From the NCBI GenBank assembly GCA_947496065.1, contig CANMBF010000010.1, positions 8,433-72,432 of the forward strand: a stretch of DNA of 64,000 bases, written 5' to 3'. Position 1 is the first letter of the stretch. Every line of letters begins with the position of its first letter. The translations under genes and the position numbers were made by a program. Shown piece by piece: positions 1 through 52,263 of the stretch. Source of the DNA: Bacteroidota bacterium (GTDB lineage Bacteria > Bacteroidota > Bacteroidia > NS11-12g > UBA955). The notes beneath the pieces are model-generated. The model was not told where the DNA came from. It saw only the letters and a list, made by a program, of their open reading frames with translations, and searched no databases.

Positions 1-1316
1 ATGAGGTGGAGTTTGATGAAAAGTACTTGTTTGAGTGGTTTGAGGATTGATGGCGGTTGCACTTTACACGACAAACAATCTCAATGCTTTTGAGGCTTGC
101 GGCCGTGGTTTTTTGTTTGCTGCATGCTTCGACTTTCTATGATGCTCCTCTGGAGCATTGATGCGCGGTGATGAGCCTATGGTACTAAGATATCGCTCCT
201 CTGGAGCGAAGAAGGTTTCGCTTCTACGGCACTATTTACAAACAATCTCTATGCTTTTGCAGCTTGCGATAATGGTTTTTTGTTAGCTAAAGGCTTCGAC
301 TTTCTATGATGCTCCTCTGGAGCATTGATTCGCGGGGTGCTGATCTTGTTACTAAGATATAGCTCCTACGGAGCTAGGTGTGCGAGGTGGTGAATTTGCA
401 GCACTTTCGGTGATGCTAAGATATCGCTCCTCTAGAGCGAATGAGGTTTATACAAATTGATTATTTGTAGTAATAAAGTTTGTGGCAGATGCTTAAGAAT
501 TCTCCGTAGGAGAATAATCTCAGTACCTATAGGGATACTAACAAGCATCTTCGCTCCGTAGGAGCAATACCATCCATACTTATGTCGCTAGCAAAAAGGC
601 TAGGCTGTGATGTAAGCATATCCACTTCTAAAGCAATGTTGGCTTTAGCGAGGCTTCGACTTTCTATGATGCTCCTCTGGAGCATTGATGCGCGGTGATG
701 AGCCTATGGTACTAAGATATCGCTCCTCTGGAGCGAAGAAGGTTTCGCTTCTACGGCACTATTTACAAACAATCTCTATGCTTTTGCAGCTTGCGATAAT
801 GGTTTTTTGTTAGCTAAAGGCTTCGACTATTTATGATGCTCCTCTGGAGCATTGATGCGCGGTGATGAGCCTATGGTAATAAGATATCGCTCCTCTGGAG
901 CGAAGAAGGTTTCGCTTCTGCGGCACTATTTACAAACAATCTCTATGCTTTTGCAGCTTGCGATAATGGTTTTTTGTTAGCTAAAGGCTTCGACTTTCTA
1001 TGATGCTCCTCTGGAGCATTGATTCGCGGGGTGCTGATCTTGTTACTAAGATATAGCTCCTACGGAGCTAGGTGTGCGAGGTGGTGAATTTGCAGCACTT
1101 TCGATGATACTAGGATATCGCTCCTATGGAGCGAATGAGGTTTCACCAATTGATTCTTTGTAGTAACCTAAGCTTGTGGCAGATGCTTTAGGATTCTCCG
1201 TAGGAGAATAATCTCAGTAACACTAGGGATACCCCCAAACCTCTTCGCTCCGTAGGAGCGATACCATCCATACTTATGTTGTTAGCAAAACGGGTAGGCT
1301 GTGATGCAAACAAAAA
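1..1316. repeat. Tandem/segmental array of 167-bp hairpin-rich units (family A), truncated by the window edge
   Basis: GCTTCGAC unit starts at 126, 293, 653, 820 and 987. Layout is A(126-292) B(293-618) linker A(653-819) A(820-986) B(987-1311). 1-125 is a diverged preceding unit. Confidence 0.9.
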
Positions 1317-1320
1317 CTAG

Positions 1321-2676
1321 TCAACCAAGTTGACTAATCGTGAACCACTCAGCGGTTTGGATGCTGCGCCGCAAACGCCACTCGTTCGGAAAGAGGTTGT
1401 TGATGCGATTGCCTGCTAGTTTGCCTAAGCCTAAATTGACACCTTCGAACTGAAGACACACATAACCCTTGTTTTTACTTTGGTGAGGGATGGCGTTTTT
1501 GCCAAGGTAGCTGACGGCTTCTTGCATCTCGAGCGATTTGATTTCAAAGGCCTCGGTATTGCATAACCACGAAAAGGGTAGGTGGTCGGATGGCAAAATC
1601 AACTTGTCGTTTTTCTCGCATACCCTGTTGCCTATGCTGTAAATGTTCAAATGGTTTTGAAGTTGCTCTACTAATTCGAACACCCTTTCATTAAGCGCTA
1701 CCACATGGTCGCGGAATAGTATAAAGTTGCTTTCCTCTTTTATGAAAGCTTGATAAGCACTCGCGTCTTTTATTCTTTTTAAAGAATTCGTTTTTTTAGC
1801 TTCTTCATCAGCTTTTGTAGTACTTGTTTTTTGCAAAAGTGAAATAAAAAAACCTTCTCCTTTTATTTGATGCGGATAACATTGGTGTTGGCCTACGGTT
1901 TGTCTATTGAAATTAAATGCTACCGGCTCAAAGCCTTGAGCACAAAGGTTTTTTACTTGCAGTTCGTTTTCATTGGGGTTGTAGGTGCAGGTACTATAAA
2001 TTATAAAACCACCTGGTTTTAAGCAATGGGTAATTTGATCTACAATGCGTTTTTGTCTGAGTGAACACATCTCAGCATTGGCAGTGCTCCATTCATTCAC
2101 CGCATTCTCATCTTTGCGAAACAAACCTTCACCACTGCAAGGTGCATCAACAATTATCACATCAAATAATTCACCACAGAGCTCAAAGTCTTTGCTATCG
2201 GAATTGGTAATGATAATATTAGGGAAGCCCCACTTCGTTATGTTTTCATTTAAAATGGGTACACGTGTACGTATGACTTCATTGCTCACCAATACATCGT
2301 TCTCGCTGAGGAGTGAGGCAATATGCGTGCTTTTTCCTCCTGGGGCTGCGCATAAATCTAGTAAACTAAGTTGACCATTATTTAGTTCCTTTATTTTCTT
2401 AAAGGCTTGCTCTAATGCCATGCTACTGGCCTCTTGTACATAGTAAGCGCCAGCATGCCACAAAGGGTCGGCCACAAACAAAGGGCGTTCTTTTAAATAA
2501 TACCCCTGCTCAGCCCATATTACTTTTTCGAGTGTAAGTTCTTTGTTTAGTTTAGTTGGATTCAGTCGAATAGAAACAGGTGTTGCAGCATTTAAACTGT
2601 CTTCAAACATGGAAAATTCAACTGCCCCAAGTTGAGCTTGCATGCGCTGTTTAAAGTCGGGTGGAAGTTGAATCAT
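1321..2676 (-). CDS. rRNA (cytosine-C5)-methyltransferase, RsmB/RsmF (NOL1/NOP2/Sun) family
   Basis: 451-aa ORF. It has the SAM-site motif DLCAAPGGKS and the catalytic-Cys motifs DAPCSGEG and YSTCT typical of this family. Confidence 0.85.
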   Translation of the reverse strand: MIQLPPDFKQRMQAQLGAVEFSMFEDSLNAATPVSIRLNPTKLNKELTLEKVIWAEQGYYLKERPLFVADPLWHAGAYYVQEASSMALEQAFKKIKELNNGQLSLLDLCAAPGGKSTHIASLLSENDVLVSNEVIRTRVPILNENITKWGFPNIIITNSDSKDFELCGELFDVIIVDAPCSGEGLFRKDENAVNEWSTANAEMCSLRQKRIVDQITHCLKPGGFIIYSTCTYNPNENELQVKNLCAQGFEPVAFNFNRQTVGQHQCYPHQIKGEGFFISLLQKTSTTKADEEAKKTNSLKRIKDASAYQAFIKEESNFILFRDHVVALNERVFELVEQLQNHLNIYSIGNRVCEKNDKLILPSDHLPFSWLCNTEAFEIKSLEMQEAVSYLGKNAIPHQSKNKGYVCLQFEGVNLGLGKLAGNRINNLFPNEWRLRRSIQTAEWFTISQLG

Positions 2677-22536: not shown

Positions 22537-23062
22537 GCCACAGATTCACAGATTAAATTTGAATACATTAATACCACAGATTAAATTTTAATGCTTAATA
22601 TTTTACTCAAGTGCTTCTTGTCCCGTAGGGACAAAACATCTGTAAAGTACAACCTACCCAATGTTCAATATCCCGTAGGGATTATACTTATAACTAAGTT
22701 TTAACAAAAAGCGATAATAAGTTATCGGTCAGTCAACGAATACCACAAATGAAATCTAACGCTTAATCTTTCACAAAGCTTCCTCTTGTCCCGTAAAGAC
22801 AAAACATCTGTAAAGTGTCACCTATCCAAAGCTTCAATATCCAGTAGGGATTATACTTATAACTAAGTTTTAACAAAAAGCGATAATAAGTTATCGGTCA
22901 GTCAACGAATACCACAGATTAAATTTAACGCTTAAGTTTTCACAAAGCTTCCTCTTGTCCCGTAGGGACAAAACATCTGTAAAGTGTCACCTACTCACTG
23001 CCTCAATATCCCCTAGGGATTATACTTTTGACTAAGTATCACTAGTAAGCGTTAAAGCATGA
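22537..23062 (+). repeat. Family B element: head motif GCCACAGATTCACAGAT plus three tandem 169-bp units
   Basis: ACCACA(G/A)A unit starts at 22573, 22742 and 22911. Each unit carries TGTCCC-GTA-GGGACA and ATCCC-GTA-GGGAT hairpins 50 bp apart, plus CGATAA-TAAG-TTATCG. Confidence 0.9.
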
Positions 23063-23593
23063 AAAAGACTTAGAAAAAACAAACTACTAATAAAGTACAT
23101 AAGATCTCAGATGGATTTTACTTTTGTGTGTAACAGAGTAATGGTGCCTATGCTTTTTTCTTTTTTAAAAAAGTACTGAATAGTAAGCTTGTAATTGCAA
23201 GTATTAAAACAGGAGGGAAGATTATGAAAATTTCAATACTGTAAACAAGTCCTTTGAAGAGATATTTTATTCCTTTAATCAAGCAAGCAAGTTGCATTGC
23301 GTATGTCAACACATGGTTAAGTTTATAATAAATTTTATTGGTCTGCTCAATAGGGTTACTCTTCTTATTTTACCAATGAAAATTTTACTTCTCGAAAGCT
23401 ATCAGGATGGGCCCAATGGTTTGGTTGTATGTTGTAAATAATTTGTTGCGATGGAGCTTTGCCTTGCAAAGCTGACTCTCTTACTTTTTTGTTTGGACAA
23501 AAAAGTAACAAAAAAACCACCACGCATAGAAAATTTCAATCGGTCTTCTCGCGCTGGCTCGCCCTTCATCCCTGACCGAAAGAAATTTTTACG

Positions 23594-23611
23594 TCCCGAT
23601 TATTATCGGGA
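23594..23611. repeat. TCCCGAT-family hairpin
   Basis: TCCCGATTATTATCGGGA, inside an ORF-free palindrome cluster. Confidence 0.7.
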
Positions 23612-23943
23612 TGGACCCAGCCCGCACGTCTAGCGTTCAACTAATTTTGTGCGTTAGTGTAAGTTATTGGTTTTAGTCAATGATCTTTTTCCTTCGCTGA
23701 CTAAAATTAATTGATGTGTAATATAATCTTTACATCGGCATATTAATGAAGCCATATGATTAAAAAACATACCATTTGGTATTTATAAGAGAAACTAATG
23801 CAAGTTGTATAGAAACAAGAGGTAGATGAATTAGATACGACTTAATCGAAAAGGCTGTTGTCGTTAATAGGAATTGGTTTTTTGTGCAATATCTTAAAAG
23901 TTAATCTGTGTATCTGTGGCGTATTAACTAAACAAAGGGCCAC

Positions 23944-23969
23944 AAAAAAAACGCCCGAATAATCGGGCG
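23944..23969 (-). terminator. Rho-independent terminator downstream of the lipoprotein gene
   Basis: 7-bp GC stem CGCCCGA-ATAA-TCGGGCG followed on the minus strand by T8. Confidence 0.75.
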
Positions 23970-24109
23970 CTTCTTAATTTTATATGAAAAGAATACTACT
24001 TCTTTAAATTAGGTATGCTTGAAAGGTTTTTTGATAAAAAAGCTTTTTAGCATGCTTTATACCGAACCGTTTGCTATGCGACTTGTCGATTAGCAATCTG
24101 GTTTAGGTA

Positions 24110-25588
24110 TTAGTAAGCCAACTGTTGAGAGTTGAAATTAGCCCAAACATCTGACCAATCGTCTGAACCAAAAGCACCTTTGAAACTTGTAGTGTTGTTG
24201 AACCAAGTAGATAATTTAGCATCTGTAAATTTAGCACCACTTTGGGTTGCACCAGAGAACAAAGCCAAATTAGGGTTTTGAGGGTAAGTACCACCAGTAA
24301 CACCAGAAACTGTATTAAAGCCCATGATTAAAGTTGGCTCGATACCAGCATCAGCAAATGTTTTAGAGTAAACCAAAGTACCAGAAGTTGCTTGTGGATT
24401 GTTTAAAGTAAATACTGTGTTAGATTTAGTTGTTTTCCAGTAAGTAGCTACGTTAGCATCTGCTGCAGCACCATTGAAGAAAGAACGTTGTGATTTTCCT
24501 TTAACACCTGGGCAAACCAAGATATTATTATCTAATACAGCAGCACCACTATTGTAGTTAGCGATAGTGCCATCTAAATTTAAACCAATTGGGTAACCTA
24601 CTATTACAGAATTGAATAAAGATAATTCAGTATTTCTTCTTAGGTGTAAAGCGTGTAAGTAGTTACCGCTGAAAGAAGCTTTAGCTGAATCGTAAACTGG
24701 ACCTAATAAAGTTACGTTAGAGAATACAGCAGAAGTTTTAGGGGTTGAAGTTGAACCAGAAGCATCGTTATCAGATTCGAAACCGTTTGAACCAGATTGG
24801 TCAGCGTTGAAAGGGTCACGCATACCGATAGCGTATTGCACTTTACCACTGAAACCGAAGTCGGTATCGAAATCATCATCCCAACCACCGAAAGCGATTA
24901 AGTGTGCACAATTAACAGTACCACCGAACCACTCGTAAGAATCGTCACCACCGTAAGATATTTGAACGTAGTCGATAGTTGTACCATTACCAACTGCACC
25001 CATGGTTAAACCATTGGTTTCGTTGTTTGGAGTAATAGCGATACCAGCATATTCAATACGTACATATTTTAAAATACCACTGTTGTCATTGTCGTTAGCA
25101 GTGCTTTGGAAAGTACCATAAATAACTGCAGGTGTAATACCTTCGATAGATGGTGAGTTTTGGTTAATGTTAGCTTTACCCAACATAATAACACCACCCC
25201 AATCACCTTGCTCTCTAGCACCTCTGTCTTGGTTACTAGTAAAGATAATTGGACTAGAAGCAGTACCATCAGCAATGATTTTTCCACCTGGCTTAACTAC
25301 TAAAGTACCTTTAGAGCTTTTTTGACCAAATAATTTAGTACCTGCAGGGATGGTTAAAACTGAACCGCTTTCTATGAATACTTGACCAACTATTAAATAC
25401 TTTTTGGTAGCATCTAAAGATTGCGTTGGCAAAGAACCAATTAATTCTGTGTAGATAGCTGGCGGCTGAACTAAGATGGTATCACGAATGGTGATGTATT
25501 CTTTTTCAATCTTAGTCTTGGTGCAAGAAGAGAATGTGAATGCAGCAACTGATGCAATAATTCCCATTGTTAAAAATTTAAATTTCAT
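24110..25588 (-). CDS. Conserved hypothetical lipoprotein downstream of the TonB-dependent receptor (non-SusD)
   Basis: Lipobox FSSCTK. Motifs GDWGGVIMLG, YEWFGGT and FESDND. Codon usage looks strongly biased. Confidence 0.65.
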   Translation of the reverse strand: MKFKFLTMGIIASVAAFTFSSCTKTKIEKEYITIRDTILVQPPAIYTELIGSLPTQSLDATKKYLIVGQVFIESGSVLTIPAGTKLFGQKSSKGTLVVKPGGKIIADGTASSPIIFTSNQDRGAREQGDWGGVIMLGKANINQNSPSIEGITPAVIYGTFQSTANDNDNSGILKYVRIEYAGIAITPNNETNGLTMGAVGNGTTIDYVQISYGGDDSYEWFGGTVNCAHLIAFGGWDDDFDTDFGFSGKVQYAIGMRDPFNADQSGSNGFESDNDASGSTSTPKTSAVFSNVTLLGPVYDSAKASFSGNYLHALHLRRNTELSLFNSVIVGYPIGLNLDGTIANYNSGAAVLDNNILVCPGVKGKSQRSFFNGAAADANVATYWKTTKSNTVFTLNNPQATSGTLVYSKTFADAGIEPTLIMGFNTVSGVTGGTYPQNPNLALFSGATQSGAKFTDAKLSTWFNNTTSFKGAFGSDDWSDVWANFNSQQLAY

Positions 25589-34775: not shown

Positions 34776-34777
34776 GA

Positions 34778-35054
34778 TTAGTTATTAGTTAATCGTTATT
34801 AAGGGGTATACCACCCAATAACCTAATAACCTAATAACCCACTAGTATAAAAAAACATACCAAGTAGTATGCATTTTCAATAATAAGCCAAAGCTTTCAG
34901 ACCCCGAAGGGGTCATATCTCTATAATATAGATAAAGCCAGATTGCTCTCGACCCCGAAGGGGTCGAATATAAGTTATTGGTTAATTGTTAATAGTTATT
35001 AAGGGAATACCAAGCCCCCTATTAACCCAATAACCTAATAACTCAATAACCCCA
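34778..35054. repeat. Composite palindromic element: two AT-rich TAACC/GGTTA-word arms flanking two GACCCC-GAA-GGGGTC hairpins
   Basis: Arms at 34778-34840 and 34973-35054 are direct repeats, and each is internally an imperfect palindrome. Hairpins at 34900-34914 and 34950-34966 are 51 bp apart. Confidence 0.8.
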
Positions 35055-41605: not shown

Positions 41606-41611
41606 ACCGCC

Positions 41612-41741
41612 TGTCACACCAACATACGTGTTACATCATCACACTTGCTACACCATCATGCCCATTACACGATCATCTCTGTTACACCATCAAACGTGTT
41701 AAACGAGCAAACCTGTTACACCAGCATATATGATGGTGTAC
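41612..41741 (+). repeat. Seven exactly phased 17-bp direct repeats (consensus TGTTACACCATCA + 4 nt) plus a terminal inverted copy
   Basis: Unit starts at 41612, 41629, 41646, 41663, 41680, 41697 and 41714. The inverted TGATGGTGTAC at 41731-41741 pairs with unit 7. Confidence 0.9.
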
Positions 41742-48744: not shown

Positions 48745-49075
48745 TCTAACCACAGTCAGACTGAGCCTGTCGAAGTCCCAGTACTTCCAAGATTAACGCC
48801 CAAGGATTATTGTTTAAGCCAACCATTCAGGCTTCGTAACTCTTCGACCATACGTTCGACTCCCGATAGAAATCGGGACAGTATGACGAAGTGTTAGGCT
48901 AACGAAAAAACATAACCTACATCAGTCAGACTGAGCCTGTCGAAGCAATAGTACTTCTAGGAATAATATCTTAGGATTTGAATAATCACAATCGATCTGT
49001 GAACTAATCACAGTTTTAATCTGTCCCAATAGAAATAGGGACTGTGGCTTAATTATGGCACAATCCAAACTTGGT
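48745..49075. repeat. Family C: two units of about 170 bp carrying GTCAGACTGAGCCTGTCGAAG and a TCCCGAT hairpin
   Basis: The 21-mer starts at 48755 and 48925. TCCCGATAGAAATCGGGA lies at 48861-48878. Confidence 0.8.
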
Positions 49076-49094: not shown

Positions 49095-49317
49095 TTTTAT
49101 GAGACAGGCTAAAAGTATAATCCCTAAGGGATATATAAGCAGGGGTTAGTTTTTACTTACAGTTATTAAATCCCTACGGGATAAGGATACAATTGTTGAT
49201 TTTTGAGTTGCATAAATTAAATCCCTACTTAATGGTGTAGGCTAAAAGTTAATTTTTAGTAGTAAAATTAAATCTGAGAATTTAATGTATTCAATTCTCT
49301 TCTGTGAATCTGTGGCT
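49095..49317 (-). repeat. Family B element, inverted orientation, ending with the head motif next to the Usp gene stop
   Basis: GCTAAAAGTATAATCCCTAAGGGAT...ATCCCTACGGGAT...CTGTGAATCTGTGGC. This is the reverse complement of the 22.5-kb units. Confidence 0.85.
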
Positions 49318-49334
49318 TTGAACCCGAAGGTTAA

Positions 49335-51609: not shown

Positions 51610-51665
51610 GCCACAGATTCACAGATTGAAATTAGCACCAATAGATTTCACAAATTTTAATACTT
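51610..51665 (+). repeat. Family B head fragment, starting 7 nt after the hemW stop
   Basis: GCCACAGATTCACAGATTGAAATT... is homologous to 22537-22600. Confidence 0.8.
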
Positions 51666-51734: not shown

Positions 51735-51945
51735 AGCTAAAAGTATAATCCCTACGGGATATTGAGGCAGTGGTTAGTTTTTACTTACAGATATTATATC
51801 CCTACGGGATAAAGCGACACATTAGTTATTATTAGGTTTACATCTATTAAATCCCTAACGGATAATGTATGCAATAAGGTACTTTTATACATTAAATACA
51901 ATCTGAGAAATGATTGTATTCAATACTCTTCTGTGAATCTGTGGC
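51735..51945 (-). repeat. Family B element, inverted orientation (copy 1 of 2 upstream of 52264)
   Basis: It begins GCTAAAAGTATAATCCCTACGGGATA and ends CTGTGAATCTGTGGC. Confidence 0.85.
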
Positions 51946-52009
51946 TAATAAAGACTCAATCCTGTTTTGTTCAGATATTTATCGGCCCTTGGGTTTGTTA
52001 GTATTTAAC

Positions 52010-52220
52010 GTAGGCTAAAAGTATAATCCCTACGGGATATTAAGGCAGTGGTTAGTTTTTACTTACAGATATTAAATCCCTACGGGATATAGAAGCAGGG
52101 GTTAGTTTTTACTTACAGATATTAAATCCCTACGGTATAATATATACCATTAGTTTATTTTCAGCATTAAAATTCAATCTGAGAAATAATGTATTCAATT
52201 CTCTTCTGTGAATCTGTGGC
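52010..52220 (-). repeat. Family B element, inverted orientation (copy 2), with three 50-bp sub-repeats
   Basis: TCCCTACGG hairpin cores at 52027, 52077 and 52127. It ends CTGTGAATCTGTGGC, 43 nt from the amidase stop. Confidence 0.85.
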
Positions 52221-52263
52221 TTTTTAAGAATAAGCGCAGCAACACTGCATGCACACGAAAAAA

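Follow-up and report, generated by a model that had tools for sequence, protein, structure and literature searches.

The left end of a 64,000-nucleotide (nt) stretch of Bacteroidota DNA from contig CANMBF010000010.1 (the window) carries an array of short hairpin repeats. This array is probably a cluster of two-hairpin mini-elements of ~78 base pairs (bp), akin to the bacterial interspersed mosaic elements (BIMEs) and REPtrons built on repetitive extragenic palindromic (REP) sequences, and the cognate DNA of an adjacent TnpA_Y1 transposase of subclass 1.2. The reading draws on the observed anatomy of the array, the association of element and gene across loci and phyla, the covariation of the stems and the polymorphism of array length. 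Its key is the adjacent transposase gene, which an earlier note on this DNA had missed, describing positions 1-1320 as free of open reading frames (ORFs) and bases 1-125 as an older, diverged repeat unit. Bases 1-50 are in fact the 3′ end of a 154-amino-acid (aa) Y1_Tnp gene (+ strand, frame 3, ending ...EVEFDEKYLFEWFED-stop), and bases 51-125 are a 75-nt tail, here termed x, that follows its stop codon. The gene escaped the window's ORF list because it runs off the left edge. It is complete in L001, a European Nucleotide Archive (ENA) metagenome scaffold that was retrieved through an identity look-up of the neighboring methyltransferase protein and matches the window at 99.94% identity across 11,859 nt. 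There the 154-aa gene is annotated PF01797 (Y1_Tnp), and its protein matches window positions 3-47 at 100% (tblastn). The array had also been thought to continue leftward; in L001, the transposase gene is preceded by a DUF4920 gene with its terminator, and no hairpin repeats are found to the left of the transposase gene. The array thus fills the gap between two convergent genes, those of the transposase and an RsmF-type methyltransferase.

The repeats themselves are as first described. The unit start GCTTCGAC lies at exactly 126, 293, 653, 820, and 987 (7 copies in the window vs. 0.61 expected), and Tandem Repeats Finder (TRF), run on the window, confirmed the 167-bp period with arrays at 71-374 and 651-1068. 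The order A-B, 34-nt linker, A-A-B was borne out, the second A-B block being offset by 693-694 bp; A1 and A2 are the same in sequence, and B2 is a close copy of B1. Positions 1-1320 hold 15 perfect hairpins (stems ≥5 bp, 3-nt loops, CC/GG adjoining the loop), including those quoted in the earlier note for their YCC-NNN-GGR core, and the spacing within hairpin pairs is indeed 51 bp. With up to 2 mismatches permitted, 14 occurrences of the motif TATNGCTCCTNYGGAGC compare with 0.07 expected, and 14/14 lie within 140-1263. The final repeat ends at 1312, close, as had been reported, to the stop codon of the minus-strand methyltransferase gene at 1321-1323.

The basic element is a dimer of ~78 bp, consisting of an inner hairpin, H1, and an outer hairpin, H2, 51 bp further on, with a CTAT..AT box before H2 and GAA after it. 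The 5′ flanks of the hairpins in the window are CTATGAT and CTAAGATAT, with no GT[AG]G foot. Five dimers in gene orientation, two inverted dimers and two partial units make up the array content, all within 136-1267, and the blocks that hold the dimers measure 167 bp (A) and about 340 bp (B). Each A unit is composed of a dimer plus a copy of tail x, and this second half of the unit is homologous to the tail behind the transposase stop codon (51-125). B units carry, beyond the dimer of A, a third hairpin and an inverted dimer. Folded as single-stranded DNA, the B unit scores z = -4.9. Shuffled sequences fold as well as the whole A unit does (z = -1.0); in the A unit, only the small hairpins matter structurally, not the fold of the unit as a whole.

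Three independent tests, from gene to DNA, from DNA to gene, and by unit membership, agree in tying the hairpin array to the gene. For the first, 80 metagenomic loci encoding homologues 51-91% identical to the transposase were analyzed. Perfect CC-loop-GG hairpins reach 7.95/kb at ≤300 nt from the gene, compared with 0.44/kb in non-ORF DNA and 0.18/kb in ORFs more than 1 kb away, and 67/80 loci have at least one inside 600 nt. Typical positions are about -17 to -35 and -70 to -82 upstream, where GTA loops prevail, and about +14 to +26 and +62 to +77 downstream, where most loops are TAC; the two flanks are therefore inverted. Read outward, either flank takes the form [A/C]ACATNNC-GCTCC-loop-GGAGCT, about 25 nt, (T)CTATAAACATNTC-GCTCC-loop-GGAGCGAA, which simplifies to ACAT..GCTCC-loop-GGAGC, ~25 nt, CTATAAACAT..GCTCC-loop-GGAGCGAA. 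Because both flanks share this outward form, a two-hairpin dimer stands on either side of the gene, the two being inverted relative to each other. A sequence-only hidden Markov model (HMM) of the dimer, for which the correct orientation (minus upstream, plus downstream) within 60 nt was required, identified it upstream in 36/75 loci, downstream in 44/79, and on both sides in 27/74; 219 of its matches fall inside 600 nt of the gene and 23 farther out. Upstream and downstream stems of the same gene agree in 42/54 cases vs. 29 ± 2.3 upon permutation, and for stems other than GCTCC the agreement is 14 vs. 3.3 ± 1.6. Together with the paralogue-specific stems described below, this is the cognate-family pattern known for REPs and their REP-associated tyrosine transposases (RAYTs). 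Some homologous metagenomic loci (L128, L130, L133) contain 25-bp-period arrays of a single hairpin, ATTAACATTTC-GCCCC-TAC-GGGGC-T, which suggests that a monomer with its ACAT box may also be amplified alone.

In the opposite direction, one genome per species was scanned solely with the outer-hairpin (H2) motif of the window. The matches listed include more than 119 loci, mostly from Candidatus Poribacteria, the others coming from Acidobacteriota (Pyrinomonadaceae, Blastocatellia), Ignavibacteriota (Ignavibacteriaceae), and one Bacteroidetes metagenome-assembled genome. The contexts of the listed matches display the same dimer architecture, and transposase homologues of 44-57% identity lie within 7 of the listed 8-kb stretches, several of them <100 nt from the hairpin. 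Dispersal of the element is clear in Poribacteria. Across 99 distinct copies from this group, conservation runs from about -57 to +22 relative to the outer hairpin motif, beyond which the flanks are unrelated. The element is thus about 80 bp long with sharp edges, as a mobile mini-element would show. Its two hairpins are direct repeats on one strand, reminiscent of the left and right ends of the insertion sequences (ISs) IS200/IS605. Individual Candidatus Poribacteria loci add detail. In L014 (5900-8000), 116-bp tandem dimer arrays flank the homologous gene on both sides; L099 has two paralogous genes 4.3 kb apart whose cognate stems differ (GCCCC vs. CGCTCC); and L101 contains a 4,056-bp duplication that includes the gene and its dimers.

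Membership of the window units was assessed with a covariance model, R1, built from 23 foreign flanks with the window sequence excluded. R1 recognizes the five dimers in gene orientation (E 2e-9 to 1e-8), both inverted dimers on the minus strand, and, as partial matches, the two remaining units (Table 1). It also finds dimers at five further intergenic sites of the 64-kb window, whose stems are ATCCC/GTCCC (family B) or GACCCC (family C) where the array itself has the GCTCC type (family A).

The hairpin structure is kept while its sequence changes. In alignment A3, the 3-nt-loop subset of the flank hairpins, the two loop-proximal C-G pairs are invariant, and the three outer pairs vary solely through double substitutions (T-A to C-G, G-C to A-T). 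Its covariation score is 0.32 vs. 0.16 for shuffles, in a set preselected for perfect stems. No selection on pairing enters a second comparison, in which 71% of 235 CTAYARAYA boxes from the 80 loci are followed by a perfect hairpin inside 24 nt, as against 2.8% after shuffling; these box-anchored hairpins comprise at least 15 different stems.

Array length varies widely between genes that scarcely change. The order DUF4920-transposase-methyltransferase is kept in L001, L122, and L202 at 88-100% protein identity, consistent with vertical inheritance. The array measures 1270 bp in the window and 1103 bp in L001, which has one A unit fewer, 445 bp in L202 (88% identical), and ~290 bp in L122 (protein 91% identical, methyltransferase DNA 96%). 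The family-B array of the window likewise differs between near-identical contigs, being 100 nt longer in L205, equal in L207, and 338 nt (2 units) shorter in L208. In L122, the 5′ arm of the first hairpin of the window and the 3′ arm of its last + hairpin are fused into a single hybrid hairpin, and in L202 a duplication junction falls exactly at a hairpin foot, so that breakpoints coincide with hairpins, inside them or at the foot. As the units carry flanking DNA, including the 3′ tail of the gene, expansion at the level of blocks probably proceeded by duplication or slippage at hairpins and not by insertion of the element.

The gene adjoining the array fits, in its predicted protein sequence, an IS200-like TnpA_Y1 of subclass 1.2. 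The transposase scores 65.5 bits on the NCBIfam IS200/IS605 model NF033573, passing the cut-off of 55, and a profile made from 25 homologues finds ISDra2 TnpA (E 1e-11), IS608 TnpA (E 5e-9), and archaeal IS200 transposases; the same profile has no match at E ≤ 1 to the solved E. coli TnpA-REP structure in the Protein Data Bank (PDB). Invariant in the 25 homologues are H55 and H57 of the HUH motif, W95, Q96, Y115, Q119, H122, and H123. The tyrosine motif reads YIDKQEAHH, that is, Y---Q--HH, and in combination with DHIH, WQ, and a length of 154 aa it reproduces the published signature of subclass 1.2 (DH[IV]H, WQ, Y---Q--HH; about 150 aa). This subclass was described as low-copy, devoid of IS200-type ends, found in Cyanobacteria and Bacteroidetes, and "REP: no," with intragenomic copies sharing just 36% identity (Quentin et al. 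2018, PMC6006769). However, the automatic REP search of that study accepted only stems of 7-20 nt with GTAG or GTGG at the foot and would therefore miss the present hairpins; in its manual REP table, neither subclass 1.2 nor a CTATAAACA box nor any similar sequence appears (PMC6006769). The family is large, with >6,700 clusters at E ≤ 1e-5, many of them on contigs of ~1 kb. Contigs with homologues of 94% and 88% identity stop 10-40 nt past the stop codon of the gene, which is what assembly breaks caused by arrays would produce.

How such a protein might act on the repeats can be framed by its better-known relatives. Binding, cleavage, and mobilization of the elements by the transposase are steps that we infer, as is any benefit to the host. 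By analogy with the TnpA proteins of IS608 and ISDra2 and with E. coli TnpA-REP, the transposase would bind the small hairpins when the DNA is single-stranded, would cleave and religate the strand at points dictated by the conserved boxes beside the hairpins, and could in this manner seed copies both close to the transposase gene and at other places. Dimer-bearing blocks would then be gained or lost as tandem units, probably by ordinary duplication or slippage at the hairpins. The biochemistry behind these analogies is established (PMC3333891, PMC3479197).

The closest parallel is the E. coli REPtron, that is, REP/BIME sequences with TnpA-REP (RayT/YafM) (Ton-Hoang 2012, PMC3333891; Messing 2012, PMC3479197). 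Both have extragenic palindromes that occur singly, paired in either orientation and in mosaic clusters, with clusters at gene 3′ ends. In E. coli, a low-copy Y1 HUH gene is bracketed by its own inverted palindromes; here such a bracket is common in the homologous loci, the window locus has units on the downstream side only, and low copy number is what has been reported for subclass 1.2. Unlike the E. coli system, the present one has no GT[AG]G foot, its 5′ flank being ACAT or CTATAAACAT; stems span just 5-7 bp and loops 3-4 nt; a dimer of fixed build, with two hairpins spaced by 50 bp, serves as the basic unit; and the protein belongs to class 1.2 (Y---Q--HH) whereas theirs is class 2 (Y---NP). 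In contrast to classical REPs, which are species-specific, the DNA motif here is conserved across phyla. With the Pseudomonas REPIN-RAYT system (Bertels and Rainey 2011, PMC3116915), the array shares paired hairpins as the repeated entity, a cognate family per gene, and conserved synteny in keeping with vertical inheritance. A REPIN, however, consists of two inverted REPs in one long hairpin, compared with two direct hairpins here, and the transposase class differs. The nearest proteins to the present transposase belong to IS200/IS605 elements (IS608, ISDra2), which, along with their gene-less derivatives of the palindrome-associated transposable element (PATE) type, recognize small subterminal hairpins on one single strand and, as here, use two direct hairpins to delimit a short element. 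In those elements, the gene sits between a left and a right end in direct orientation, while homologues of the present gene are flanked by two complete inverted dimers; a further difference is the low copy number reported for subclass 1.2. Subclass 2.6 and class 3 provide precedent for weak, non-GTAG hairpins accompanying Y1 genes, although the class 3 sequences in that work are unlike the present hairpins (Quentin et al. 2018, PMC6006769).

Several findings count against a REPtron-like cluster cognate to the transposase. The hairpins have no GTAG foot such as classical REPs possess (flanks ACATNNC, CTATAAACATNTC), and the protein fails the NCBI RAYT model NF047646, at 26.7 bits against a cut-off of 80. 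At the window locus, units lie only downstream of the transposase and none upstream; the first dimer begins 86 nt past the stop codon, and the canonical gene-proximal dimers are absent. No GCTCC-type (family A) hairpin occurs outside the array in the 64-kb window plus 8.4 kb more of L001, ~72 kb in all, which leaves the dispersal of family A unproven. The 167-bp unit includes DNA that does not belong to the element (the x tail), and growth of the array requires just ordinary tandem duplication. Collapsed short-read assembly could explain single-unit differences, including that between the window and L001; the larger length differences are beyond such a cause. On the statistical side, the A3 set was preselected for perfect stems, and some metagenomic loci are near-duplicates, 11 of which fed into the models. 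With no gene-proximal dimers at this locus, a GCTCC family seen only in the array over ~72 kb, and neither a GTAG foot nor a class 2 protein, the array is better described as working like a REPtron than as a classical REP/RAYT member.

An alternative, which we regard as unlikely, is an active IS200-type insertion sequence with gene-less derivatives, similar to PATEs or miniature inverted-repeat transposable elements (MITEs), in which the dimer would be a minimal element with H1 as left end and H2 as right end, and the array a pile-up of insertions beside their source. The protein is closest to genuine IS200/IS605 transposases, the hairpin pair of each dimer repeats directly on one strand in the manner of IS200/IS605 ends, the edges of dispersed copies are sharp, and two gene copies sit close together in L099 and L101. 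Yet homologous genes are bracketed by inverted dimers and not by one direct left and one direct right end, and the window locus has no upstream hairpin at all. The DUF4920-transposase-methyltransferase synteny kept across relatives, along with the low copy number and 36% intragenomic identity reported for subclass 1.2, also speaks against an active IS, and insertion would not copy the flanking DNA that the 167-bp units carry.

The earlier note had left open whether the array was a BIME-like REP cluster, a series of structured RNAs, or a satellite. The BIME-like option fares best, as extragenic palindromes in both orientations are mixed with other sequence beside a Y1 HUH gene, and the same element flanks homologues elsewhere. 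That the hairpins act mainly as RNA, be it as 3′-untranslated-region stabilizers, terminators, or small RNAs between convergent genes, with the transposase incidental, is quite improbable. E. coli REPs between convergent genes stabilize mRNA, and the present array occupies just such a setting; compensatory stem change, moreover, fits RNA as well as it does single-stranded DNA. An RNA role does not, however, account for the 18-fold enrichment beside one gene family, and the units face either way and lie upstream of transposase genes as well. The A unit, with z = -1.0, offers no whole-unit fold beyond that of shuffles, and Rfam gives no match at gathering or relaxed thresholds: Rfam 15 at gathering score returned nothing in the window or in 15 related loci, and a relaxed search (E ≤ 5) of 1-1400 produced chance-level matches only. 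The repeat hairpins are without U-tracts, and terminator-like sites are no commoner than in shuffles. Intrinsic terminators were accordingly rejected as an identity for the repeats, with 2 such sites vs. 1.1 expected. The first belongs to a repeat hairpin, the tail of which, TATCTTATTA, has no true T-run; the second, the methyltransferase's own hairpin at 1315-1339, is the sole real terminator candidate. A neutral local tandem satellite, that is, a variable-number tandem repeat (VNTR) arising by slippage with no specific protein partner, is very improbable and largely refuted. It would be in keeping with the exact 167-bp periodicity, with unit numbers that differ between strains both at the array and at 22.6 kb, and with the ordinary flanking DNA included in the units. 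But R1, built from other organisms, recognizes the window units, the stems covary, and the same motif is dispersed in distant phyla beside homologous genes; related copies elsewhere in the window and in those phyla contradict a purely local satellite. A CRISPR array was rejected as well, since the sequences between the hairpins are themselves repeated (A1 = A2; B1 like B2).

We give an even chance to a broader proposal. Subclass 1.2 nucleases and ~80-bp two-hairpin elements (ACAT-hairpin ... CTATAAACAT-hairpin-GAA) may constitute an unrecognized REPtron-type system common to Bacteroidota, Poribacteria, Acidobacteriota, and Ignavibacteriota, an evolutionary intermediate between IS200 insertion sequences and REP/RAYT, whose recognition module is unusually conserved across phyla and which generates hypervariable tandem arrays. 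Within the full-text literature that could be searched, no prior description of the motifs or of repeats associated with subclass 1.2 was found. REP/RAYT is the textbook case of a domesticated transposase with its own non-autonomous repeats, so far made up of class 2 Y1 proteins and GTAG-footed palindromes, mostly in Proteobacteria. Here, a large subclass 1.2 family that had been reported without REPs appears with a cognate repeat of simple, highly conserved architecture. It is likely a missing link between insertion sequences and REPtrons, it may account for many of the hairpin arrays between genes, and of the assembly breaks, in genomes of Bacteroidota and sponge symbionts, and its protein and DNA form a small, testable pair with which to study the reading of hairpins by HUH enzymes.

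Table 1. Features of the array, its borders, and the related dimers elsewhere in the window
Feature	Position	Strand	Evidence or remark
3′ end (15 codons + TGA) of 154-aa TnpA_Y1 gene	1..50	+	Remainder left of window
75-nt tail x after transposase stop	51..125	+	Local alignment score 85 vs. 18.3 ± 3.6 (shuffles)
A unit 1, 167 bp: dimer 136-213 + x-like tail	126..292	+	TRF; R1 42.8 bits, E 2.3e-9
B unit 1: + dimer 303-380, partial/solo unit 418-475, inverted dimer 495-573 (-), 34-nt linker	293..652	+	R1 E 1.3e-8 (303-380), 8.6e-3 (418-475), 2.4e-5 (495-573)
A unit 2, identical to A unit 1: dimer 663-740	653..819	+	R1, alignment
A unit 3, few substitutions: dimer 830-907	820..986	+	Absent from contig L001
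B unit 2: + dimer 997-1074, partial unit 1112-1151, inverted dimer 1189-1267 (-)	987..1320	+	R1 E 1.3e-8 (997-1074), 9e-4 (1112-1151), 1.6e-6 (1189-1267)
Terminator-like hairpin with T-run, methyltransferase's own	1315..1339	-	
RsmF/RsmB-type RNA methyltransferase gene	1321..2676	-	Pfam PF01189, PF17125, PF13636; right boundary of array
Family B dimers (GTCCC/ATCCC stems), 169-bp-period array after DUF3037 gene	22614..23028	-	R1, TRF; R1 E 7e-7 (22614-22690), 2e-5 (22951-23028)
Family C dimer (GACCCC-GAA stems)	34895..34972	-	R1 47.4 bits, E 1.5e-10, top score in window
Family B dimer	49112..49188	+	R1 E 3.7e-3; hairpin listing
Family B dimers incl. 50-bp-period run	51740..52139	+	R1 E 8e-6 (51740-51816), 2e-6 (52018-52094); TRF array at 52025-52139

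The related dimers elsewhere in the window have features of their own. The family-B array after the DUF3037 gene spans 22570-23037 in all, and several contigs end inside it; a possible homology between the tails of its 169-bp units and those of the 167-bp family A units was rejected (score 23 vs. 20 ± 4). The family C dimer is bordered on both sides by 7-8-bp tandem repeats (ATTAGTT, ACCTAATA, TAACCCAA; region 34777-35052). At the outer edges of the family-B dimer clusters, beside gene ends, lies a direct-repeat motif, CCACAGATTCACAGATT (reverse complement ...TCTGTGAATCTGTGGC), with sites at 22539-22600, ~49290-49318, 51612-51627, ~51925-51947, and ~52205-52228; it may bound a larger composite repeat.

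Among the remaining contents of the window, no tRNA or tmRNA was found, and a look-up of the HemN-like protein returned nothing on record. The region 23040-24110 comprises ~1 kb without an ORF of at least 120 aa, with a GC-richer patch at ~23520-23640 that holds a hairpin (CGTCCCGATTATTATCGGGATG); Rfam reports nothing in 23040-24110 at the gathering threshold. A 17-bp tandem repeat, CCTGTTACACCATCATA, is present at 41610-41728 in 7 copies with 69% match (TRF). Finally, an intergenic repeat of another type occupies 48750-49060, where 2 copies of TCAGACTGAGCCTGTCGAAG are accompanied by hairpins with larger loops (GTCCCGATAGAAATCGGGAC, GTCCCAATAGAAATAGGGAC).

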